Source: an uncultured Erysipelotrichaceae bacterium | GTDB taxonomy: Bacteria > Bacillota_I > Bacilli_A > Erysipelotrichales > Erysipelotrichaceae | Reading direction: 5' to 3' | DNA: 64,000 bases | Assembly: GCA_947569705.1 (NCBI GenBank) | Contig: CANOSP010000011.1 | Coordinates: 485 to 64,484 of the forward strand | Shown here: positions 39,529 through 50,094 of the stretch, piece by piece | Numbering within the stretch: the stretch's first letter is position 1 | Layout: every line of letters starts with the position of its first letter | Program-made: the position numbers and the translations under genes | Notes under the pieces: model-generated | The model's input: only the letters and a program-made list of their open reading frames with translations | Told to the model about the DNA's origin: nothing | The model's database searches: none

Positions 39529-40894
39529 TTAATTAAAAAAGTTATAAAGACCTAGAACAAAAACGATGAATACGATGACAGGCAAAACATAGGTCATATA
39601 AGATCGCATATAGTTTTTGATTTTTAAGCCTTTGCCTGTATTTGCCTCATCTACAAACTTATTCCAGCCCCAGCCGTTTTTACGGACACAAAAAAGTACA
39701 AAGATCAATGAGCCGATTGGCAGAATTATATTACTTACCAAAAAGTCCTCAAGATCCATAATAGTTGAACCGTCACCGAACGGTTGAATACCGTTTAACA
39801 TGTTAAATTCTAATGCACACGGCAGTGAAAGCACAAACATCATAATGCCGTTTACCATGCAAGTTTTTCTTCTGCTCCATCCGGTAATATCCATCGTCGA
39901 GGCAATGATTCCCTCGAATACAGCAAAAATTGTTGAAAGCAACGCGAACGATATAAAGATAAAAAACAGACTGCCCCATAAACATATTGTTAAATATATT
40001 CGGCAATGTAATAAAAATCAGGCTAGGTCCGCTGTCAGGCTGAACACCGTTTGCGAAGCAAGCAGGAAAAATAATCAATCCCGAAACGATTGCGACAAAT
40101 GTATCAAGAAATGCGACATTAACTGCCTCTCCCATAAGGGCTCTTTTTTTGCCGATATAACTTCCGAATATAGCCATTGCGCCGATACCTAAGCTAAGGG
40201 TAAAAAACGCTTGATTCATTGCCGCAACGATTACATTGACAATACCGGCATCTAGCATTTTTTGAAAATCAGGTACAAGATAGAACGCTAAACCTTCTTC
40301 TCCCCCGCTCATAAATATGCTGTTTACGGCAAGCACAAGCATAATGATAAGTAATGCAATCATCATAAATTTTGTGATTCGTTCTAACCCGTCTTTTAAA
40401 CCGAACGAACAAACGAGAAAACCGATAATGACGACGATTAACATAAATAATACCATCGAGTTACCGTCACCCAACATATTATTAAAGTAATTGCCGACTT
40501 CGGTAACCTCAAGACCTTCAAAGCTGCCGTTTGCCATTGCCAGAAAATACCTTAACATCCAGCCTGTTACGGTTGTATAAAACATCATCAAAAGATATAG
40601 CCCGATAACCGATAAATACCCGTGTAAGTGCCACTTTGATCCTTTCGGTTCCAGTTGCTGATAAAGCCTTGCAGGGCTCTTTTGACTTGCACGTCCCAGT
40701 GAAAACTCCATTGTCATTACCGGTATTCCTAAAATAAGCAGATAAAACAAATGAATCAGTACAAATATTCCGCCGCCGTATTGACCGGCAATATACGGAA
40801 ACTTCCATACATTTCCGATTCCTATGGCACATCCTGCACTTAATAAAATAAAACCCAATCTACTTCCGAGTTTCTCTCTTTCCATAATTTTCAT
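39529..40894 (-). pseudogene. Sodium-dependent transporter (SNF/NSS family), frameshifted near 39973-39983
   Basis: ORF 39803-40894 (GCAIGIGNVWKFPY, QAFFTLSLG) and ORF 39529-39942 (STIFAVFE..C-terminal TMs) are two frames of one gene. An assembly error is not excluded. Confidence 0.85.
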
Positions 40895-40960
40895 TACCTT
40901 TTTAATTATAACATAGACAGCCTTTTACTTCATATGTAGAACGTGTTAATATCAGCTTTT

Positions 40961-41554
40961 CTACTCTGAAACATCGATATTAAATTCTATTTGTCGGATT
41001 AAATCTCCGCAGTACTGATAATTTGATACTAGACATTTCTTTCCGCTTGGTTTTTGCAATCTCTGATGATCATATTTATCCGGCATTTCCAATGCACTAA
41101 TATATTGATCTATCACTTTTAAAACAGCTTCAATTCCTGAAATACCTGCGATAATCTGTGATTGTACCTGCACTGTTTTTTGCAATGTGCGCATACGCTT
41201 TTCATTCACTATATATCCTTTTATCATGTATTCTTTCAATATTACATTTGCCCATTTTCTAAATATCGTTGCTCTTTTTGATTTAATACGATAACCTACA
41301 GATAAAATCATATCTAAATTATAATGCTTTAAAGTTCTTTTTACTGTTCTATCCCTTTCTTTTTGAACAACCGAGAAATCCTCGGTAGTTGATTGTTTAT
41401 CTAATTCTTTTTCCTTGTAAATATTTTTTATATGTAATCCAATATCAAACAGCACACTCATTTGCTTCTGCGTTAGCCAAACTGTATCATTATCTGCACA
41501 TATAGAAACATCTAACTGCAATTCCCCAGCTTTAAAAATAACAATTTCATTCAT
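40961..41554 (-). pseudogene. Truncated RhuM-Fic paralog (Fic domain lost)
   Basis: DTVWLTQKQM..YNLDMILSVGYRIKS..FRKWA; the second half is nearly identical to 43561-44499; it shifts frame at FNIDV and ends before the Fic motif. Confidence 0.8.
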
Positions 41555-41755
41555 TTTTTATCAACCCCTTCTTTATTTTAAGTTGTCTCTTATGATTAAG
41601 ATTATAGCGTAAAAATAGTAAGAAAGCTTCTTATAAAAGTTAAATCATCAGTTCTTGTTAACTTGAAGTTATTATTCTTAAAAATATATATTATAATTTT
41701 TATGAATTTAAATCCTTAAATAATTTAATCCTTTCAATCTAAGTTATCAACTCTT

Positions 41756-41791
41756 TTATCTTCTCGCTAGCATTACGACACTTTCAATATG
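41756..41791 (-). repeat. rlmD 3'-end copy R5 (HIESVVMLARR*)
   Basis: CATATTGAAAGTGTCGTAATGCTAGCGAGAAGATAA; 30/36 identical to R2. Confidence 0.85.
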
Positions 41792-41853
41792 TATCGAATG
41801 TTTGTAATTGTAAAGAATGCTTCAAATCCTTGTTGAATTATCCTATAAAAATA

Positions 41854-42085
41854 TCAGCTTCCAATGCAGGATATAGACAATACATGTATGTTATTGTTTA
41901 AAGCATAGTTTTCTTTCGTATTACATAACAGGCAAGAAAAGCCAATCGAATACCTTGATTTTTCTAACTGTTTAAAAGCCTTTACACTATCTAAATGAAA
42001 ACTAACAAATCTATATACCTCGGCAGATTTTCCGATTTGTATTTAATGCTTCTTTAATTTTAGTATTTATTGTTCTTTCAATCAC
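41854..42085 (-). pseudogene. Internally deleted remnant of a possible AAA/DUF4143-type ATPase
   Basis: RBS AGGTG + GTG gives MIERTINTKIKEALNT..; another frame gives a C-terminal-like ..DSVKAFKQLEKS..CLLCNTKENYALNNNIHVLSISCIGS*. The family call is from recollection only. Confidence 0.4.
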
Positions 42086-42204
42086 TTTTATCACCTGCTT
42101 CTACTATACCATGATTTTATGCGATTTAAAGTACAAACTTAAATTCGCATAAAAAAATGCAAGTCATATTTGTAACCTACATCTCTATTCACTGATTTGA
42201 TTTT

Positions 42205-42272
42205 TTAACTTTTTTGCAACAGTACAATGGATTCCACATGGCTTGTTACTTTTAAATGAAGCAATTACAAGT
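42205..42272 (-). repeat. rlmD 3'-end copy R4 (HVESIVLLQKS*, 42205-42240) with conserved upstream arm
   Basis: CTTGTAATTGCTTCATTTAAAAGTAACAAGC|CATGTGGAATCCATTGTACTGTTGCAAAAAAGTTAA. Confidence 0.85.
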
Positions 42273-42318
42273 ATAGTTAAAACAAATGCGCTCATCAATT
42301 TTTTTATTAGAAATTCAG

Positions 42319-43371
42319 TTACCACTTTTCCATTAAATTAAATAACGCAACATTTTTATATATAACTTCTTTACCCACTTTCTCGCTAATAACAAAACCT
42401 TGCTCCTCTAAAAGTTTTAAATATTTATTAGCCGTAGATCGTGATATATTAAATTCATTTCTTAAAAATTCATTTTTGGTATAAAACTCATAATACAAAT
42501 ATTCAACGAGTTCTTTTGAATAGATTTTAGGTAATCGCTCTCTCATTAACATTGTTGTTTGCTCCATACTATGAATGATTTCATCTATAAAGCGAATGGT
42601 AAAATCTGATGTTGCCGCAATACCTTTTAACATATAGCGAACAAATATACGAATATTTTCTTCATTATTATTGCATTCTCTTAATAAAGTATAGTATTCA
42701 TCTTTATTGTGGATGATGTATCTGCTTAAATAAAGAACCGGATATGATAGTTTATTCATCATAACTAAAAATAAAACATTTAGAATCCTTCCTGTTCTCC
42801 CATTACCATCATAAAAAGGATGTATTGTTTCAAACTGATAATGAATCACTCCCATATTAATTAACGGATCATATTCATTATCTTGATTAATATATTTTTC
42901 TAAGTTAGACAGATAATCTAGAATTTCTACTTCTGATTGCGGCGGTGTATGAAGAATCTCACCTGTTCTTGTATTCTTTATCACTGTTCCGGGTAACTTT
43001 CTAATGCCACCTTTATCAGATTCAATACAGTTTTGAATATTAATTAGAGAACGAATACTTATGAAGTCATTCCTTTTTAATTCTTCAAAGCCTAAAGAAA
43101 TAGCCTTTCGATACCTTAAAACTTCTTTTGCATTTGCTGAAATTGAACTTTCACTCGTCATTTCCTTATATATTTCATCATATGTTGTTACAATATTCTC
43201 AATTTCAGATGAGTCCTTAGCTTCTCCTAATGTAATAGCATTTAATAAGATTTGTGGGTTCGGAAGTTGGTTTATGATGCCTTTTAATTCTCCGACTTTG
43301 TTATTTGCATTTGATAACAATTTCAATGTTTCAACATCATTTAAATCTATAGATAAAGGAAGTTTAAACAT
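42319..43371 (-). CDS. Class II Fic family protein (AMPylase-like) with C-terminal HTH
   Basis: Inhibitory SSEIEN motif, canonical HPFYDGNGRTGR, C-terminal ISRSTANKYLKLLEEQG. Confidence 0.92.
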   Translation of the reverse strand: MFKLPLSIDLNDVETLKLLSNANNKVGELKGIINQLPNPQILLNAITLGEAKDSSEIENIVTTYDEIYKEMTSESSISANAKEVLRYRKAISLGFEELKRNDFISIRSLINIQNCIESDKGGIRKLPGTVIKNTRTGEILHTPPQSEVEILDYLSNLEKYINQDNEYDPLINMGVIHYQFETIHPFYDGNGRTGRILNVLFLVMMNKLSYPVLYLSRYIIHNKDEYYTLLRECNNNEENIRIFVRYMLKGIAATSDFTIRFIDEIIHSMEQTTMLMRERLPKIYSKELVEYLYYEFYTKNEFLRNEFNISRSTANKYLKLLEEQGFVISEKVGKEVIYKNVALFNLMEKW

Positions 43372-43482
43372 TCAATCACCTCGTGCGTTCATTATAACAG
43401 TTTTTACACACGTTCACAACACGTGTTTAATTTTTTTGTTTTTTTATACACGTCAATGTTCCATATATCATAAAATAGTCTT

Positions 43483-43545
43483 TTATTTCTTCTCTATCTG
43501 AAACACACTTTCCACATGGCTTATAGCTTTTAAATTGAGCAATCA
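43483..43545 (-). repeat. rlmD 3'-end copy R3 (HVESVFQIEKK*, 43483-43518) with conserved upstream arm
   Basis: TGATTGCTCAATTTAAAAGCTATAAGC|CATGTGGAAAGTGTGTTTCAGATAGAGAAGAAATAA; 43511-43545 is 34/35 identical to 44653-44687. Confidence 0.85.
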
Positions 43546-43560
43546 TAGACATAGATAGCC

Positions 43561-44499
43561 TTAAGCGTTTTCTTTTTGTAAAAAATTCATTACCAATGCA
43601 ATCATAGTTTCTTTTTCTTCCGGTTTGGATTCTGCAATCATTAAAGTAATTGCGACTAATGCACTATCACTGATTATTTTAGTATTCCCAATAAATAATG
43701 ATTGATTTTTATGCAAAAAAGCTAAAAACAAAGCTGCAGCTATCCTCTTGCATCCATCCGCAAACGGATGATCCTTTATCATAAAATAAAGCAGATTGGC
43801 AGCTTTTTCTTCTAATGTCGGATATACTTCTTGTCCAAAAACCTCTTGATACACTGCTGCAAGTATTCCCTCTACCTTACCGCTCTCTTTTTCAACTCCG
43901 AATACAGCGGTATCAAATTTCATTTGCTTAATTAAATCACAGCAGTCCTGATAAGTCAATTTTACAAGACATTTCTTTCCGTTTGGTTTTTGCAATCGCT
44001 GATGATCATAACTATCCAGCATTTCTAACGCACTAATATACTGATCTATCACTTTTAAAACAGCTTCAGCTTCAATTCCTGAAATACCTGCGATAATCTG
44101 TGATTGTACCTGCACTGTTTTTTGCAATGCGTGCATACGCTTTTCATTCACTGCATATCCTTGAATCATATATTCCTTTAGAATCTTACTTGCCCATTTA
44201 CGAAAATAGACACCGCGTTTAGACTTTACTCTATACCCTACGGAAATTATAATATCTAAAGAATAAAACGGTACTCTTTGCTTAACACCCTCAACACGCA
44301 AAAATTGCGTGTTGTTATCTCTGTCTGCTTCATTTTCTTTAAACACATTATTGATGTGTTTTCTTATGGTCTTTTCGTCACGTTTAAAAAGATCAGCCAT
44401 TTGATTAGCGCTTAACCACACGGTATCTCTCTGCGATAAAATTGTTACGTTCAGCCTAAGCTCGCCATCTTCAAAGACCACAATATCACTAACATCCAT
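43561..44499 (-). CDS. RhuM-like N-terminal domain fused to a Fic/Doc domain
   Basis: DTVWLSANQMADLF..YSLDIIISVGYRVKS..FRKWA; Doc-type HPFADGCKRIA. Confidence 0.9.
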   Translation of the reverse strand: MDVSDIVVFEDGELRLNVTILSQRDTVWLSANQMADLFKRDEKTIRKHINNVFKENEADRDNNTQFLRVEGVKQRVPFYSLDIIISVGYRVKSKRGVYFRKWASKILKEYMIQGYAVNEKRMHALQKTVQVQSQIIAGISGIEAEAVLKVIDQYISALEMLDSYDHQRLQKPNGKKCLVKLTYQDCCDLIKQMKFDTAVFGVEKESGKVEGILAAVYQEVFGQEVYPTLEEKAANLLYFMIKDHPFADGCKRIAAALFLAFLHKNQSLFIGNTKIISDSALVAITLMIAESKPEEKETMIALVMNFLQKENA

Positions 44500-44624
44500 A
44501 AGGCAATCCTCCTACACATATGAATAAAATTATTCTCTATTATATCATGAAAATCTTCTGCAAAATCATAAATAAATATTAAAATATTTTTATAACAAAT
44601 GGCGTAAAAATTTTCCTTTCTCAT

Positions 44625-44692
44625 TTATCTTCTCACTAACATTACAACACTCTCCACATGGTTTATAGCTTTTAAATTGAGCAATCACAAGC
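44625..44692 (-). repeat. rlmD 3'-end copy R2 (HVESVVMLVRR*, 44625-44660) with conserved upstream arm
   Basis: CTTGTGATTGCTCAATTTAAAAGCTATAAAC|CATGTGGAGAGTGTTGTAATGTTAGTGAGAAGATAA. Confidence 0.88.
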
Positions 44693-44916
44693 ATGGTTAT
44701 CCCTACGCATGTTCTTTCTACTTCATATTTTTGTGTTAAATATTTTATTGGTTGATCTCTCCATTTTCTTCACTTTTTCTTTTTTATACATATGTTTATT
44801 GTCTTTCCATCTTGCTTACAAAGAGCATCGATTAAAATAGCATTTAACCATGCGGCTCATTGGTCAATACCCTCGGCACTTTAAAAATAACACAAATGTA
44901 TATTGCTATCTCTGAA

Positions 44917-46128
44917 CTATGCAATTAGATATATATTCTCATTATCAAAACAAATCTGCGCGGTATGATTATAAATCTGAATCATATCTTCCATTTTATC
45001 TACAAACACTTTAGTGCCCGGATTACAAGCAGCAGCAAACTCCTTTATCGCTTTCGTTTCCATTTCGATAGCATTTTTATGTAATTGAGCACCCTTGTTT
45101 TTTAAATACTCATCGACTTGGCCTTCCTTAACTAACGGAATGCTACCAATAATTTTACCAACTGTTTTACCAGCAATTCCAATGCCTTTTACAACATTTG
45201 TATCTAAGCCAACCTTACAAATTCCCTCAAGATATAAAGAACCATTTTTGAACTGTTCTCTGTATGTATCTGATAAGTTTTTTATCTCTTCTTTGACCTT
45301 AGCTATGTACTCCTCTTTAAAATTACCACTTAGCATAATTTCCATTAATGCTCCTAACGAGTAAGTGTACAATGACAATCTATAGTACTTGAACTTTTTC
45401 TCTAAATCAGATAATATTGAGTTTACTTTACTTTGCGCAACAACAAACTGTTTTGATGAAACAATATCAGTAACTTTCTTTTGAAAAGCAATCATATTCT
45501 TTCGAGCGCGATTCTGAATATCTAAAACTAATTTATGACTGCTTGCTACTGAAAGTTTATTGTCCCAATTATATTTATAATTAGTTATGATTTCCATTAA
45601 AGATTCAACATCTGCTTCTATCTGCGATTCGTTTTCTACTTCAAGAAATGTAAGTATTTCCTTTTGCGTTTCAGCAATCTCAGCAATATCCTTTTCTATC
45701 GAATATAATGCTACCGCCATCATCATTGTTGCCGGATTGAAAGCGGCTACTGACTGTGTTGTTGCGGTTAATGGACCGGCTTCTGCAAGCTGTACCATTT
45801 TTGATCCACCCTCAGCTGTTTTCATCGCCCCCCATGCATTACCATTTTTAGCAAGCTTTAAGTTATCTCCTGCCGCTGCATTTGCTATTCTGAAAAGGCC
45901 GTTTGTTGCAAAAGTTGTCGTCTGAGTAACCTTATTTAATGACGGAATTAGCGTTGATACAACAGCACCTAACGTAGACAATTTACCGATAGGAACACTT
46001 AATGCCTTATTGCTATTGATGGATGATCTCGCATCCTCTAAAAGATCATCTGTAAGTTCTACCAGTCCGTCTGCCCTCCCCTCTATATCTATCTTGTATG
46101 TATTATTTATTTTAATTACCTCACTCAT
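44917..46128 (-). CDS. Hypothetical protein (403 aa, hydrophobic segments and coiled coil)
   Basis: RBS GGAGGT; no recognisable catalytic motif. Confidence 0.75.
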   Translation of the reverse strand: MSEVIKINNTYKIDIEGRADGLVELTDDLLEDARSSINSNKALSVPIGKLSTLGAVVSTLIPSLNKVTQTTTFATNGLFRIANAAAGDNLKLAKNGNAWGAMKTAEGGSKMVQLAEAGPLTATTQSVAAFNPATMMMAVALYSIEKDIAEIAETQKEILTFLEVENESQIEADVESLMEIITNYKYNWDNKLSVASSHKLVLDIQNRARKNMIAFQKKVTDIVSSKQFVVAQSKVNSILSDLEKKFKYYRLSLYTYSLGALMEIMLSGNFKEEYIAKVKEEIKNLSDTYREQFKNGSLYLEGICKVGLDTNVVKGIGIAGKTVGKIIGSIPLVKEGQVDEYLKNKGAQLHKNAIEMETKAIKEFAAACNPGTKVFVDKMEDMIQIYNHTAQICFDNENIYLIA

Positions 46129-46182
46129 ACTCTACCTCCCAATATTTCATTTACACCTATACACTTTATTCTTAAAATGGAC

Positions 46183-46230
46183 TTATCTACGCTTTTGTTT
46201 CCTCACTATCAGAACCGCACTTTCCACATG
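46183..46230 (-). repeat. rlmD 3'-end copy R1 (HVESAVLIVRKQKRR*)
   Basis: CATGTGGAAAGTGCGGTTCTGATAGTGAGGAAACAAAAGCGTAGATAA, starting 17 bp after the RhuM stop. Confidence 0.8.
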
Positions 46231-46247
46231 ATGACCTTTGTCCGAAC

Positions 46248-47267
46248 TCAATTCTTACCCCTTTTCTTTACTGTACTGTGAATATTTTTAATACTTTCCA
46301 AATATTCTTCTTCTACCGGCGATAAGTTCTGTACCTGATATTTCTTATATTCTTCTGTTGCTTTTTCGATTGCCTGTGCATGACTAATCGTTCCGGCCCC
46401 TTGCAACACTTTTTCACCTGTAGTTTTTAAAACATTATCAAGGTGCTCCACATAATCTGCCATATACATAGGATTGTGGCGCATAGCTTGAATCTCCGCA
46501 AAATCAAAATATCCCGATATAATATTATTTAGGATCTTTAACTCTTCATCATTGAGATAATTTTTTGCAATACTGATATCTTTTAATACAGGAAAATCAC
46601 CAGAAAAACTTTTCAATCCCATAAAAGGCTGACTGGCGTCCGCACGCCCATATATAATTTCTGCTGCTGTATGCCCATGTGCTGCATAGTGTAATTTATT
46701 TTGTACCATTTTGAAAAATGCAATAGATTCACTACTCTTGGGATCATAATCAACACTTGTTGCATAAAGATCAAGTACTTGCCGGTACATAACTTTTTCA
46801 GATGAGCGTATATCCCGAATACGGTCTAATAACTCTTTCCAGTAAGTCCCGCCACCCAAATTTTTCAGCCGTTCATCATCCATTGTAAACCCTTTTATCA
46901 TGTACTCTTTTAATCGTTCAGTAGCCCACCGACGAAAATTTGTAGCAATTTTAGACTTTATTCTGTACCCAAGCGAAATAATCATATCAAGATTATAGTG
47001 TATTGTATTATAGTTTTTCCCGTCAGCCGCAGTTGTTCGGAATTTCCGAACAACTGCATTTTCCTCTAGCTCACCCTCTTCAAAGATGTGCTTAGTATGC
47101 TCACTGATATTAGATTTACTGGTTTGATAAAGTTCACATAATTGTGCCTGTGTAAGCCAAACGGTCTCGTTTTCAAATTTAACATCTATTTTTGTCTTTC
47201 CATCTTCCGTTTGATATATGATGATTTTGCTTCCTATAATATTTAAATTATCTTTATTGTCCACCAT
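46248..47267 (-). CDS. RhuM family (virulence RhuM) protein
   Basis: ETVWLTQAQLCELY, HYNLDMIISLGYRIKS, FRRWAT, RIRDIRSSEKVMY, QNKLHYAAHGHTAAE. Confidence 0.92.
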   Translation of the reverse strand: MVDNKDNLNIIGSKIIIYQTEDGKTKIDVKFENETVWLTQAQLCELYQTSKSNISEHTKHIFEEGELEENAVVRKFRTTAADGKNYNTIHYNLDMIISLGYRIKSKIATNFRRWATERLKEYMIKGFTMDDERLKNLGGGTYWKELLDRIRDIRSSEKVMYRQVLDLYATSVDYDPKSSESIAFFKMVQNKLHYAAHGHTAAEIIYGRADASQPFMGLKSFSGDFPVLKDISIAKNYLNDEELKILNNIISGYFDFAEIQAMRHNPMYMADYVEHLDNVLKTTGEKVLQGAGTISHAQAIEKATEEYKKYQVQNLSPVEEEYLESIKNIHSTVKKRGKN

Positions 47268-47295
47268 TATTTGGCTCCTTTCTGTCTTTTAATAT

Positions 47296-47777
47296 TTATA
47301 TATTTGTAAATAATCCTCTTAAGATTTTTTCGATTTGTTCAGATTCAACTTGCCTTTTTAAATAATCAATTTTTGTCTCGATATATTTTTTATGCTTAAT
47401 CCATTCTAACCCTATTAAACTTGGAAGTAATGATTCAAGATACTCAATCCTAGCAGAATACATAGGTACCGCACTCCCCGACAACTCCAAGAAGTAGGTG
47501 TTAATGGTATTCTTTTAAAATCTTCAAACAATAGATTATTCTCAAGTAATAGCAAAATATATTCCTTCTTTCTTTCGATTTCCAATTTCGATATAACTGA
47601 ATATAGGCAATACTTTTTTGTTTCATCATTAGAGAACAACTGAATGTATTGTCGAATCCACTCGTCTTGTCTTCTCCAACACATAATCCTTAATTTCCTC
47701 ATAGGTGGCTATACTCTCCGCGGCCGTCAAATCAATTCATCCATTTCTAATTCCACATTGACATGCTTCAATTTATA
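47296..47777 (-). pseudogene. Decayed RlmD C-terminal extension fused to a frameshifted C-terminal fragment of a larger protein
   Basis: After the rlmD stop: KHVNVELEMDEL/(D)LTAAESIATYEEIKDYVLEKT with a 1-nt frameshift. It then switches to ..DEWIRQYIQLF..LTPTSWS/SGSAVPMYSARIEYLESLLP..*, with a second frameshift at about 47485. Confidence 0.6.
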
Positions 47778-49106
47778 TTATTTAAGTTTGGAAAGCAACA
47801 CGACACTTTCAACATGCTGCGTCTGCGGAAACATATCCACCGGTTGTACCGCTGCCGCATGATAACCGTACTGTTTCAATCGTTCAATATCTCTCGCTTG
47901 TGTTGCGACATCACACGACACATAAACAATTCGTTGCGGCTCCATACTTGCAATGCTTTCCAATACCTGCTCATCACACCCCTTGCGCGGCGGATCTACA
48001 ATTACAACATCAATTTTCTGATTATTATCACTCAATTCCTTCGCATAAGCTTTCGCATCAGCGCAAATAAACTGTGCATTTTCAATATGATTGCGCTCAG
48101 CGTTTTCCTTTGCGTTCTCAATAGCTTCAGGAATAATTTCAATACCGATCACCTGCTTTGCCTGCTTCGCTAAACACAAGCCGATCGTTCCGACCCCGCA
48201 ATAACAGTCCAGAACCGTCTCATTCCCGCTCAACTGCGCAAACTGCATTACTATGCGATACAGCACCTCGGTCTGCTGCGGATTCACTTGATAAAAAGAT
48301 TTCATCGCAATACGAAAGGACAAATCAAAAATTCGATCACTGATATACGGATGACCGTACAATAAAATCTCTTCCTCGCCTAAAATCACATTATCATCGC
48401 GCTGATTAATATTTAACATAACGCTTTTTATCTGCGGAACTTGTTCACACAAAAGCTGCACTAACGGTTCCCAATCCATGCCGTTCGCATCAGAGGTGAT
48501 AAAAACTACCATAACTTCATCACTGCTTCTCGCATATTTAATCAATAAATGGCGAAGTCCGCCAAGCGAATGCTTTGAACTTAAAAACCCCTTCACAATC
48601 TGTAATACACGATTCATTACAGGATGCTGAATCATACACTCATCCATATCCACCGATTCATTGGAATGTAAACGATAAAAGCCGCAGACCACTCGATCAT
48701 TCTGTAACTGAAACGGCACCTGCGCTTTGTTGCGATAATTCAATCCGTTTTCCATCATCAAAACATCAGACACTTCAGTATCAATATGAGCGATGCGTCT
48801 CATTACACCTTCTACCTGCTCCTTTTTAAAGAACGCCTGATGTTTCAAAGACATATGCTGAAGCTGACAACCGCCGCATTTACCGGCAAGCGGACACAGC
48901 GGTTCAACACGCTCTTCGTTTTTTTTCAAAAGCTGCTTTACTCTTCCGTATCCAAACTGCTTCTTCACCATTGTCACAATGATTTCTGCTTCTTCACCCA
49001 AGATTAAATTTTTCACAAATAACGGAAATCCGTCAACCTTTACCACACCAAAACCTTGATAAGTATAGCTGACACAAGTTCCTTTCACAATATCATTCTT
49101 TTTCAT
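47778..49106 (-). CDS. rlmD: 23S rRNA (uracil-5-)-methyltransferase RlmD/RumA
   Basis: CGGCQLQH Fe-S motif, YRNKAQ, FYQVN, DCYCGVGTIG, VDPPRKG, YVSCD, DMFPQTQHVESV; start after GGAGG (ORF track start 49157). Confidence 0.95.
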   Translation of the reverse strand: MKKNDIVKGTCVSYTYQGFGVVKVDGFPLFVKNLILGEEAEIIVTMVKKQFGYGRVKQLLKKNEERVEPLCPLAGKCGGCQLQHMSLKHQAFFKKEQVEGVMRRIAHIDTEVSDVLMMENGLNYRNKAQVPFQLQNDRVVCGFYRLHSNESVDMDECMIQHPVMNRVLQIVKGFLSSKHSLGGLRHLLIKYARSSDEVMVVFITSDANGMDWEPLVQLLCEQVPQIKSVMLNINQRDDNVILGEEEILLYGHPYISDRIFDLSFRIAMKSFYQVNPQQTEVLYRIVMQFAQLSGNETVLDCYCGVGTIGLCLAKQAKQVIGIEIIPEAIENAKENAERNHIENAQFICADAKAYAKELSDNNQKIDVVIVDPPRKGCDEQVLESIASMEPQRIVYVSCDVATQARDIERLKQYGYHAAAVQPVDMFPQTQHVESVVLLSKLK

Positions 49107-49125
49107 AAGCCTCCAAGAAAAAGGG

Positions 49126-50094
49126 CTATTCGCCCTCTGTCTGTTGTTTATTATCATTCGTCGGCGGATTAGAAGTATCCGGATTCAAAATTTCCTCTGC
49201 ACTTTGTTTATCCTTAGGAGTACTCAATACATCATCGACAGGCTGCTCGGCAGAAGAATTCTTCACCTTGCTTAAATGAATCTGACTCTTTTTTTCTTCC
49301 TCATTTTTAGGAATATAATTATAAGCACTGATCTCCAAATCATACATCTTAACTACCTTGTCACCGTCTTTTTTATTAGTAAAATACTTATCGACAGGAA
49401 GTTTTTCATTCACTTTGGCATAAGCATCATTCATCAGCTTTTGGATTGCATCCTGCTTTAAATCATCTTTCGCATTGATATTGATTCTTAAGGTGGCAGA
49501 CTTCAAATTGATTTCGACTGCCTCTGCGCCCTCAAAAGTCAAGCTTGACTCTAATTCCTTTAAATCTTCTTCGGTAATTTTAGGATCCAAAGCATTTTTA
49601 AAGCGTGATCCCTCTACCGGTTCAGAAGAGTTCTCACGAGAACCTAAAAATATATACAATAAGATTAAGCAAGGAATCGCAATCACACCGATGGTTACCC
49701 ACAATAAATAATTAGGTTTTTTCGCTGCCCCTTTGGGATGCTTCACCGGTGATTGAGTTGACCGCTGCTTTTTCGTCGATGTCGACTGAGGTTTTGTCAA
49801 CTTGCTTTGTGATGACGACTTACTTTGAGATGTTGACTTGGACGCTTCTTTCTTCGGTGTAGAAGCATTGCCGACAGTCTTTACACTCTTTTTCTCATTC
49901 TCTTTATTTTCAGCTTCTTTTTGTTTTTTTGAGATTGGTTTATGTTCAACAGTGTTTTGCTTACTGTCAGTACTTTTAGAAGCCTCTTTTTGACGAGATT
50001 CATCTGCCCACTGCTTCATTGTTTCCATATCGCTGTCCAGACTGTTTTGTTCTGAACCTATCGCATGTCTTTTCTTCACTTCTTGTTCTTTCAT
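49126..50094 (-). CDS. Hypothetical single-pass membrane protein with Lys/Ser-rich N-terminus
   Basis: TM YLLWVTIGVIAIPCLILLYIFL; RBS GGAG. Confidence 0.75.
   Translation of the reverse strand: MKEQEVKKRHAIGSEQNSLDSDMETMKQWADESRQKEASKSTDSKQNTVEHKPISKKQKEAENKENEKKSVKTVGNASTPKKEASKSTSQSKSSSQSKLTKPQSTSTKKQRSTQSPVKHPKGAAKKPNYLLWVTIGVIAIPCLILLYIFLGSRENSSEPVEGSRFKNALDPKITEEDLKELESSLTFEGAEAVEINLKSATLRININAKDDLKQDAIQKLMNDAYAKVNEKLPVDKYFTNKKDGDKVVKMYDLEISAYNYIPKNEEEKKSQIHLSKVKNSSAEQPVDDVLSTPKDKQSAEEILNPDTSNPPTNDNKQQTEGE

Follow-up and report, generated by a model that had tools for sequence, protein, structure and literature searches.

The closest characterised analogues of the locus considered here are the composite islands of staphylococcal cassette chromosome (SCC) and pseudo-SCC elements at the 3' end of rlmH (orfX) in staphylococci, in which tandem, defence-rich SCC-like cassettes next to SCCmec are excised by CcrAB acting in trans (Hossain et al. 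2024, PMC11470126). The present locus lies in a 64,000-nt stretch of an uncultured Erysipelotrichaceae genome (contig CANOSP010000011.1 of assembly GCA_947569705.1; hereafter the window), where the interval between rlmD (rumA), encoding a 23S rRNA U5-methyltransferase, and a gene for an SNF-family transporter is occupied by a row of small units, each opening with a copy of the rlmD 3' end. As in the SCC islands, the 3' end of an rRNA methyltransferase gene is targeted and rebuilt, and tandem cassettes between direct repeats of an attachment (att) core, many of them without a recombinase, carry defence-rich cargo. The locus differs in that the target is rlmD/rumA together with two paralogues instead of rlmH, no Ccr is encoded in the array, the host is a genus of gut Erysipelotrichaceae, and the units are single-gene segments of 1.1-1.6 kb, compared with 17-48 kb in PMC11470126. 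SCC cassettes without a recombinase rely on one supplied in trans (CcrAB or CcrC); the present units would have a similar dependence. The rlmD-SNF interval is probably an accretion array of small, recombinase-less integrative cassettes that were inserted one after another and mobilised in trans, and that would form a bank of defence genes.

The same gene end is also the target of much larger elements. The streptococcal vanG and ICE-r elements (ICE, integrative and conjugative element) insert after the GA of a Glu codon located 11 codons from the rumA stop, with a serine recombinase of 547-549 aa at the right end and an in-frame left end of 101-115 codons (PMC4120198), and rumA of S. suis serves both ICEs and prophages as a target (PMC7168690). 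With these serine-recombinase elements (vanG and ICE-r, PMC4120198; Tn5252-family ICEs and S. suis prophages, PMC7168690) the units in the window shared junctions in the His-Val-Glu codons near the gene end, tandem accretion and the in-frame replacement of the tail, as every unit opened with an end running from HVES to a stop codon. Unit 1 and the closest related species (genome G007) also shared the long in-frame extension found at their left ends. The serine-recombinase elements, however, measure 30-60 kb, encode conjugative or phage functions and have a recombinase of 520-550 aa at their right end, whereas the present units had a single cargo gene and neither of these. A further comparison is offered by the cis-mobilisable elements (CIMEs) left by accretion of the ICESt1/ICESt3 type (reviewed in PMC5704250 and PMC7563491). 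These are bounded by att sites and devoid of recombination and transfer genes, as are the units here, and are believed to move with the help of a related element integrating alongside; in contrast to the present array, they rely on tyrosine integrases acting at fda or tRNA sites, they mostly occur singly, and arrays of five or six single-gene units have not been described for them.

The array comprised six co-oriented ends of the form H(V/I)ES to stop on the minus strand, and the window contained no others. An earlier note made from the letters of the window had listed these ends with their coordinates, with CAT-to-CAT spacings of 1586, 1570, 1142, 1278 and 449 bp for the repeated copies and with four lengths of 36 nt, all of which proved exact on the minus strand. 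The degenerate 14-mer CAYRTNGARWSNRY matched the window six times, at precisely these ends and on one strand, against 1.1 matches expected, and none of 100 shuffled sequences reached six, so that the repeats do not represent background. When the 2.13-Mb genome was scanned for the corresponding peptide pattern (H[VI]ES and a hydrophobic residue, with a stop within 16 aa), the matches were the ends of the RumA paralogues on contigs C11 and C3 (that on C12 ends HVET), the five array copies, one copy behind the C3 paralogue and one stray site. The unit boundaries fell at a common junction core, CATGTNGA, and six units were counted, each running from one CAT to the next. Every interval contained one intact gene or gene remnant, as the note had also stated, and the last 12 codons of rlmD itself were contributed by unit 1. 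The rlmD gene, whose start is placed by gene callers at Met18 (442 aa), had orthologues in 41 of 41 relatives.

The units were further set apart by composition and by their right ends. Their GC contents were 28.5-34.7%, compared with 40-43% in rlmD, the SNF gene and the chloride-channel (CLC) gene and 39.1% in the genome. Units 2, 3 and 4 were closed, immediately upstream of the next CAT, by a right arm of approximately 45 nt (arm A, ...TTTAAAAGCTATAAGC then CATGTGGA), which was thus common to three units with unrelated cargo; only 42-60 nt separated the cargo stop codon from the core in these units. The displaced ends had drifted, as unit 2 had lost its original stop and unit 4 read ..VFQIEKK. 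Unit 6 retained neither a right arm nor a native rlmD end, and its gene remnant was 78-81% identical to parts of unit 3.

The host genus possesses three RumA paralogues (p1, which is rlmD, p2 and p3), and the DNA downstream of each was compared in eight congeners. Units 1 to 4 each occurred alone elsewhere, at p2 or p3 (G003, G005, G007, L127, L202). Unit 3 was the sole cassette behind p2 of G003, where it was 98.5% identical over all 1142 nt, compared with about 67% for rlmD DNA; the homology ran from CAT to the next CAT, and beyond it stood the native p2 end, in a form also known from G007 and G002. A protein 96% identical to that of unit 3 was encoded on the metagenome contig L127, where the native p3 end followed. 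Unit 4 was located directly after p3 in G003 (97.2% identity over bases 1-1218; rlmD about 67%), so that units adjacent here occupied two separate loci there. Unit 2 stood alone behind p3 in another congener (L202/L203), at 89% identity over 1615 nt against 77.8% in the flanks, and was followed by arm A and the native p3 end. The counterpart of unit 1 behind p3 of G007 was a 5.6-kb cassette encoding RhuM and an intact 1250-aa STAND NTPase (96.6% identity; rlmD 91.7%), from which unit 1 differed by the loss of 3.6 kb, and the RhuM part recurred behind p3 of G005 (90.8%; rlmD 77%). Identities between species were accordingly 89-98.5% for the units and 67-78% for core genes (96.6% and 91.7% for the G007 pair). 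The homology blocks began at CAT and, for units 2 and 3, ended at or just past the next CAT. The last ~210 nt of unit 5 were 88% identical to DNA distal to the p2 cassette of G003, which also finished at a degenerate junction.

The rlmD-SNF interval itself was compared with that of G007, the closest species (91.7% rlmD DNA identity), which keeps the synteny of rlmD with the SNF and CLC genes. Its content was entirely different and included KilA-N fragments and a GIY-YIG/DUF4357 gene matching PDC-S14, with rlmD itself fused to an extension of 113 codons. Whole units have thus been gained and lost, with the breaks at the core, which is the kind of evidence that the earlier note had asked for in this interval, and its proposal of discrete cassettes, inserted serially and each bringing a replacement RlmD end, was borne out by the recurrence of single cassettes at other paralogues elsewhere. 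Before the SNF gene, G007 contained a degenerate end and a RhuM-N relic homologous to unit 6, indicating that unit 6 predates the split of the two species. Congeners in which rlmD natively ends ..QTY(A/G)(V/I)EC.., with no His codon, had no cassettes behind rlmD. At the level of sequence, these comparisons showed both the anatomy of the units and their modular transfer: on an evolutionary time scale, they are discrete mobile cassettes that have passed from one species to another and from one RumA paralogue to another.

The association with rumA ends did not extend to the cargo families at large. In a control set of 80 metagenomic homologues of the unit 3 protein (55-65% identity), a rumA-type end preceded none of 70 distant members, and a downstream rumA-type end was found only in the 96% relative on L127. 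Likewise, a 76% homologue of the unit 2 protein was located between a PIN-domain gene and a type I restriction-modification (RM) system, and not at rumA. The packaging between rumA ends is a property of the cassette lineage and not of the cargo families. At the orthologous rumA loci of 23 other genera, no second end was detected within ~1.5 kb downstream, a range beyond which larger units are possible.

Features of the rlmD-SNF interval, given as positions of the window
Feature	Position	Strand	Description
rlmD/rumA (paralogue 1)	47778..49157	minus	23S rRNA U5-methyltransferase; Pfam tRNA_U5-meth_tr + TRAM
Live rlmD end	47778-47816	minus	HVESVVLLSKLK, stop
Repeated ends	46183-46230, 44625-44660, 43483-43518, 42205-42240, 41756-41791	minus	
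Junction core, first junction	47809..47816	minus	CATGTTGA (His-Val-Glu codons), 8 nt
Junction core CAYRTNGA, later junctions	first bases 46230, 44660, 43518, 42240, 41791	minus	
Unit 1	46231..47816	minus	end HVESVVLLSKLK, stop; decayed ICE-type in-frame extension after the rlmD stop
Unit 1, STAND NTPase tail	about 47311-47679		last ~370 nt; gene otherwise deleted
Unit 1, intact RhuM gene	46248-47267		PADLOC PDC-S05
Unit 2	44661..46230	minus	end HVESAVLIVRKQKRR, stop (shifted stop codon)
Unit 2, cargo	44917-46128	minus	403-aa protein without family match
Unit 2, right arm A	44661-44705		
Unit 3	43519..44660	minus	end HVESVVMLVRR, stop
Unit 3, cargo	43561-44499		312-aa RhuM-N + Fic/Doc protein; PADLOC PDC-S23
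Unit 3, right arm A	43519-43563		
Unit 4	42241..43518	minus	end HVESVFQIEKK, stop
Unit 4, cargo	42319-43371		350-aa SoFic-type Fic protein; Pfam Fic_N/Fic/SoFic_C; PADLOC SoFic 2.5e-99
Unit 4, diverged arm A	42241-42285		
Unit 5	41792..42240	minus	end HVESIVLLQKS, stop; non-coding relic
Unit 5, right end	41792-42000	minus	~210 nt, non-coding; 88% conserved in G003 (L049 7109-7324)
Unit 6	40895..41791	minus	end HIESVVMLARR, stop; probably the oldest unit; abuts the SNF transporter gene
Unit 6, truncated RhuM-N/Doc gene	40961-41554		
SNF-family transporter gene	39529-40894	minus	beyond the array; frameshifted into 360 + 109 aa (intact, 471 aa, in G007)

A cassette would thus consist of a cargo gene placed within a split attachment site, of which the left part is the 36-nt copy of the RumA C-terminus and the right part the arm (~45 nt in three units); arm and replacement end would meet the neighbouring unit at the core CATGTNGA, and insertion would take place by site-specific recombination within the His-Val-Glu codons. 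The right arms appear unlike the left flank of the gene, and the left arms, which encode the RumA tail, would mimic its native right flank. Since a left arm must encode a working RumA tail, the gene-proximal junction would again resemble the empty target, so that the next cassette would enter there and older ones would shift downstream. The distal units 5 and 6 were relics and the most decayed, and the proximal units were intact or recently transferred.

Several findings weigh against this account. Unit 1 was a deletion product of a larger element, and unit 4 had lost its right arm in G003, where its junction looked chimeric over ~17 nt. Base 6 of the core did not segregate cleanly with one flank. 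The 98.5%-complete genome encoded no large serine recombinase (no PF07508 match), and no element combining arm A with a recombinase was detected in 301 genomes of the family, with up to three mismatches allowed. A search of 185,579 species representatives for arm A gave 36 matches, among which only the cassette of G003 itself was real, and arm A with a recombinase was found neither in IMG/VR nor, by blastn, in phages and plasmids; arm A was therefore seen solely on recombinase-less units, with no cognate autonomous element among the collections searched. Finally, the order of the array was the same in all contigs of the species recovered from public assemblies.

The latter contigs came from at least five ENA assemblies and several Logan runs and were found through exact-protein look-ups with both flanks and two cargo proteins. 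The same unit order in every one of them means that there was no sign of ongoing shuffling or present-day activity, and the gain, loss or reordering of units that the earlier note had named as supporting evidence among strains was not seen. One Logan contig (L099, from SRR30902852) stopped at window position 47819, 3 nt short of the first junction CAT, which may reflect a strain variant at the junction and is only suggestive.

The absence of a detected helper and of polymorphism within the species would also suit another origin of the units, namely as stumps of full-size prophages, ICEs or integrative and mobilisable elements (IMEs) that each had their own recombinase, the small units never having moved as such. 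Full-size elements do use the rumA site, the 113-codon extension of rlmD in G007 resembles the left ends of ICE-r and vanG (PMC4120198), and unit 1 is readily derived from the STAND and RhuM element of G007 by its 3.6-kb deletion, with a decayed ICE-type extension kept. To this extent, and in view of the relics in units 5 and 6, the description of all units as minimal cassettes in the earlier note was too broad. Units 2 and 3, however, were found in two or three independent settings that differed in paralogue and in species. Their minimal boundaries were identical on both sides, where independent deletions would differ, and arm A was conserved across unrelated cargo. Pure decay accounts for unit 1 and the relics and does not explain the boundaries of units 2 and 3; we consider it unlikely as the origin of the array.

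The chimeric junction of unit 4 in G003 suggested homologous exchange or gene conversion, and the flanking rumA ends are alike. An exchange by transformation and homologous or microhomology recombination between rumA ends, with no site-specific recombinase, as in the minimal mobile elements of neisseriae, would fit both points. The partners, however, shared only 8-14 identical nt within flanks that were otherwise 65-85% identical over about 36 nt, which is too little for RecA-dependent recombination. Cassettes moreover moved between non-homologous paralogue loci, and this mode of exchange would give the conserved 45-nt arm no role. It is thus very improbable as the general mechanism, and the chimeric junction points to some gene conversion between ends in addition to the site-specific insertion proposed here.

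Regarding the crossover, the earlier note had placed it at the His codon, where it need not lie. Every junction shared CAYRTNGA, a core within the His-Val-Glu codons that includes the GA at which published rumA elements cross over in the Glu codon (PMC4120198). Where exactly the crossover falls, which kind of helper acts, in what order the units entered and whether any of them still move are inferred.

The array had been likened to an integron whose att site is the end of a housekeeping gene, and this comparison holds for the architecture and is not one of mechanism, for which SCC and pseudo-SCC arrays are closer. As in integrons and clusters of attC sites lacking integrases (CALINs), the cassettes are co-oriented, mostly contain single genes and can be reshuffled between hosts, with the newest expected beside a fixed insertion point. 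In contrast to these systems, there was no neighbouring IntI with attI and Pc and no folded attC, and the site lies inside a housekeeping gene. The cassettes here also seem to have their own promoters, as the earlier note had reported; TGnTATAAT motifs preceded the genes in units 3 and 4, though sigma-70-like matches were not above background (36 versus 35.2 in shuffled sequences). A further parallel for small recombinase-less cargo modules is given by the pdif modules of Acinetobacter plasmids, which lie between recombinase-binding sites and are moved in trans. These use the host XerC/D at plasmid dif-like sites and do not restore a gene end.

A true integron-like or Xer-type system, relying on a tyrosine recombinase of the host and on folded or dif-like sites, could draw on the co-oriented single-gene array and on the eight tyrosine recombinases encoded in the genome. 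All eight were on other contigs and none was linked to the arrays, no recombinase gene was found beside any array or within 10 kb on either side of the present one, and the reconstituted junctions of units 1-4 formed no stable single-strand fold, being no better than shuffled sequences (z -0.9 to +1.6), by which attC-like folding was rejected. As the recombinase-bearing elements seen at the site were all of the serine type, we regard such a system as scarcely credible.

Serine-recombinase elements use the same site as the array cassettes, in line with the earlier view of the rlmD/rumA 3' end as a serine-recombinase target. No Resolvase or Recombinase domain was detected in any unit (Pfam), and the serine recombinases of the genome were only a Hin-like resolvase and an IS607-type transposase, both unlinked to the arrays. 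An approximately 33-kb prophage of G007, bracketed by a p2 end and a second HVE end, encoded two recombinases (521 and 522 aa), an endolysin, a holin and tail genes. This prophage is located in the end of RumA paralogue 2 (L054 + L115 + L116; G007:C10, about 5130-38570). Two further genes without annotation (335 and 308 aa), located between the restored end of the paralogue and the two convergent genes for the large serine recombinases, may be morons or a separate cassette.

Both cassettes behind p3 of G002 started with a short protein containing Resolvase and Recombinase domains (302 and 264 aa). The two cassettes are in tandem (L056; G002:C11, 8157-12459), and in one of them the recombinase is followed by a 668-aa HATPase_c_3 protein. 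The short recombinases are without the zinc-ribbon or coiled-coil part. Since relatives of the 302-aa protein measure 525-527 aa, this form may be truncated; both copies keep the same C-terminus (84% DNA identity), by which the short form may instead be functional and not broken. It was CcrB-like, with a score far under the model cut-off (86.8 versus 900 bits), and had no homologue in the present genome. In another genus of the family (G074), a 527-aa relative ended about 90 nt before an HVE right junction. The arms of the G007 prophage and the G002 cassettes differed from arm A. With serine-recombinase elements at the same site, a serine helper acting in trans is the best inference, most likely a large serine recombinase supplied by a phage or a conjugative element.

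The cargo of the array appears to consist mostly of known or candidate anti-phage genes, predicted as SoFic, PDC-S05 (RhuM) and PDC-S23 (RhuM-N/Doc), and with such single-gene cargo the array would act as a defence bank open to exchange. For the 403-aa protein encoded in unit 2 there was no match in PDB, Pfam, PHROG, PADLOC or NCBIfam, and its AlphaFold model (mean pLDDT 49) was confident only in a central helical bundle (about residues 165-305). It belongs to a large unannotated family with more than 2000 homologues. The neighbours of its 76% relative, a type I RM system and a PIN-domain gene, make it a candidate new defence gene.

The genome contains a second cassette locus on contig C3 (59462-60628; locus L003, G000), where RumA paralogue 3 is followed by one unit of 1.1 kb. 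The cargo ORF of this unit is disrupted by a TGA in frame and matched no family. Similar terminator-like hairpins follow the proximal and the distal end of this unit, suggesting that its left arm copies the native paralogue-3 end together with the terminator.

Our literature searches yielded no account of miniature arrays of this kind at rlmD; the rumA hotspot and tandem accretion have been reported, and small serine recombinases have been linked to defence genes (PMC13552941). The chances appear about even that the cassettes represent an undescribed class of minimal hitchhikers in gut Firmicutes, single defence genes that parasitise rumA-specific serine recombinases of phages and ICEs and stack integron-like at any of three RumA ends. 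If so, they would provide an exchangeable defence bank in a phylum where integrons are not known. The flanking ends could be used as sequence bait for new defence genes, such as that of the unit 2 protein, and recombinase sites of 45 + 36 nt that regenerate their target could serve serial genome integration. If mobilised in trans, the array would be, after SCC, a second case of stacked cargo docking at an rRNA methyltransferase gene end, far more miniaturised than SCC with its one gene per unit, and it would account for the spread of single-gene defence (SoFic and the RhuM- and Doc-type candidates) among species of gut Erysipelotrichaceae.

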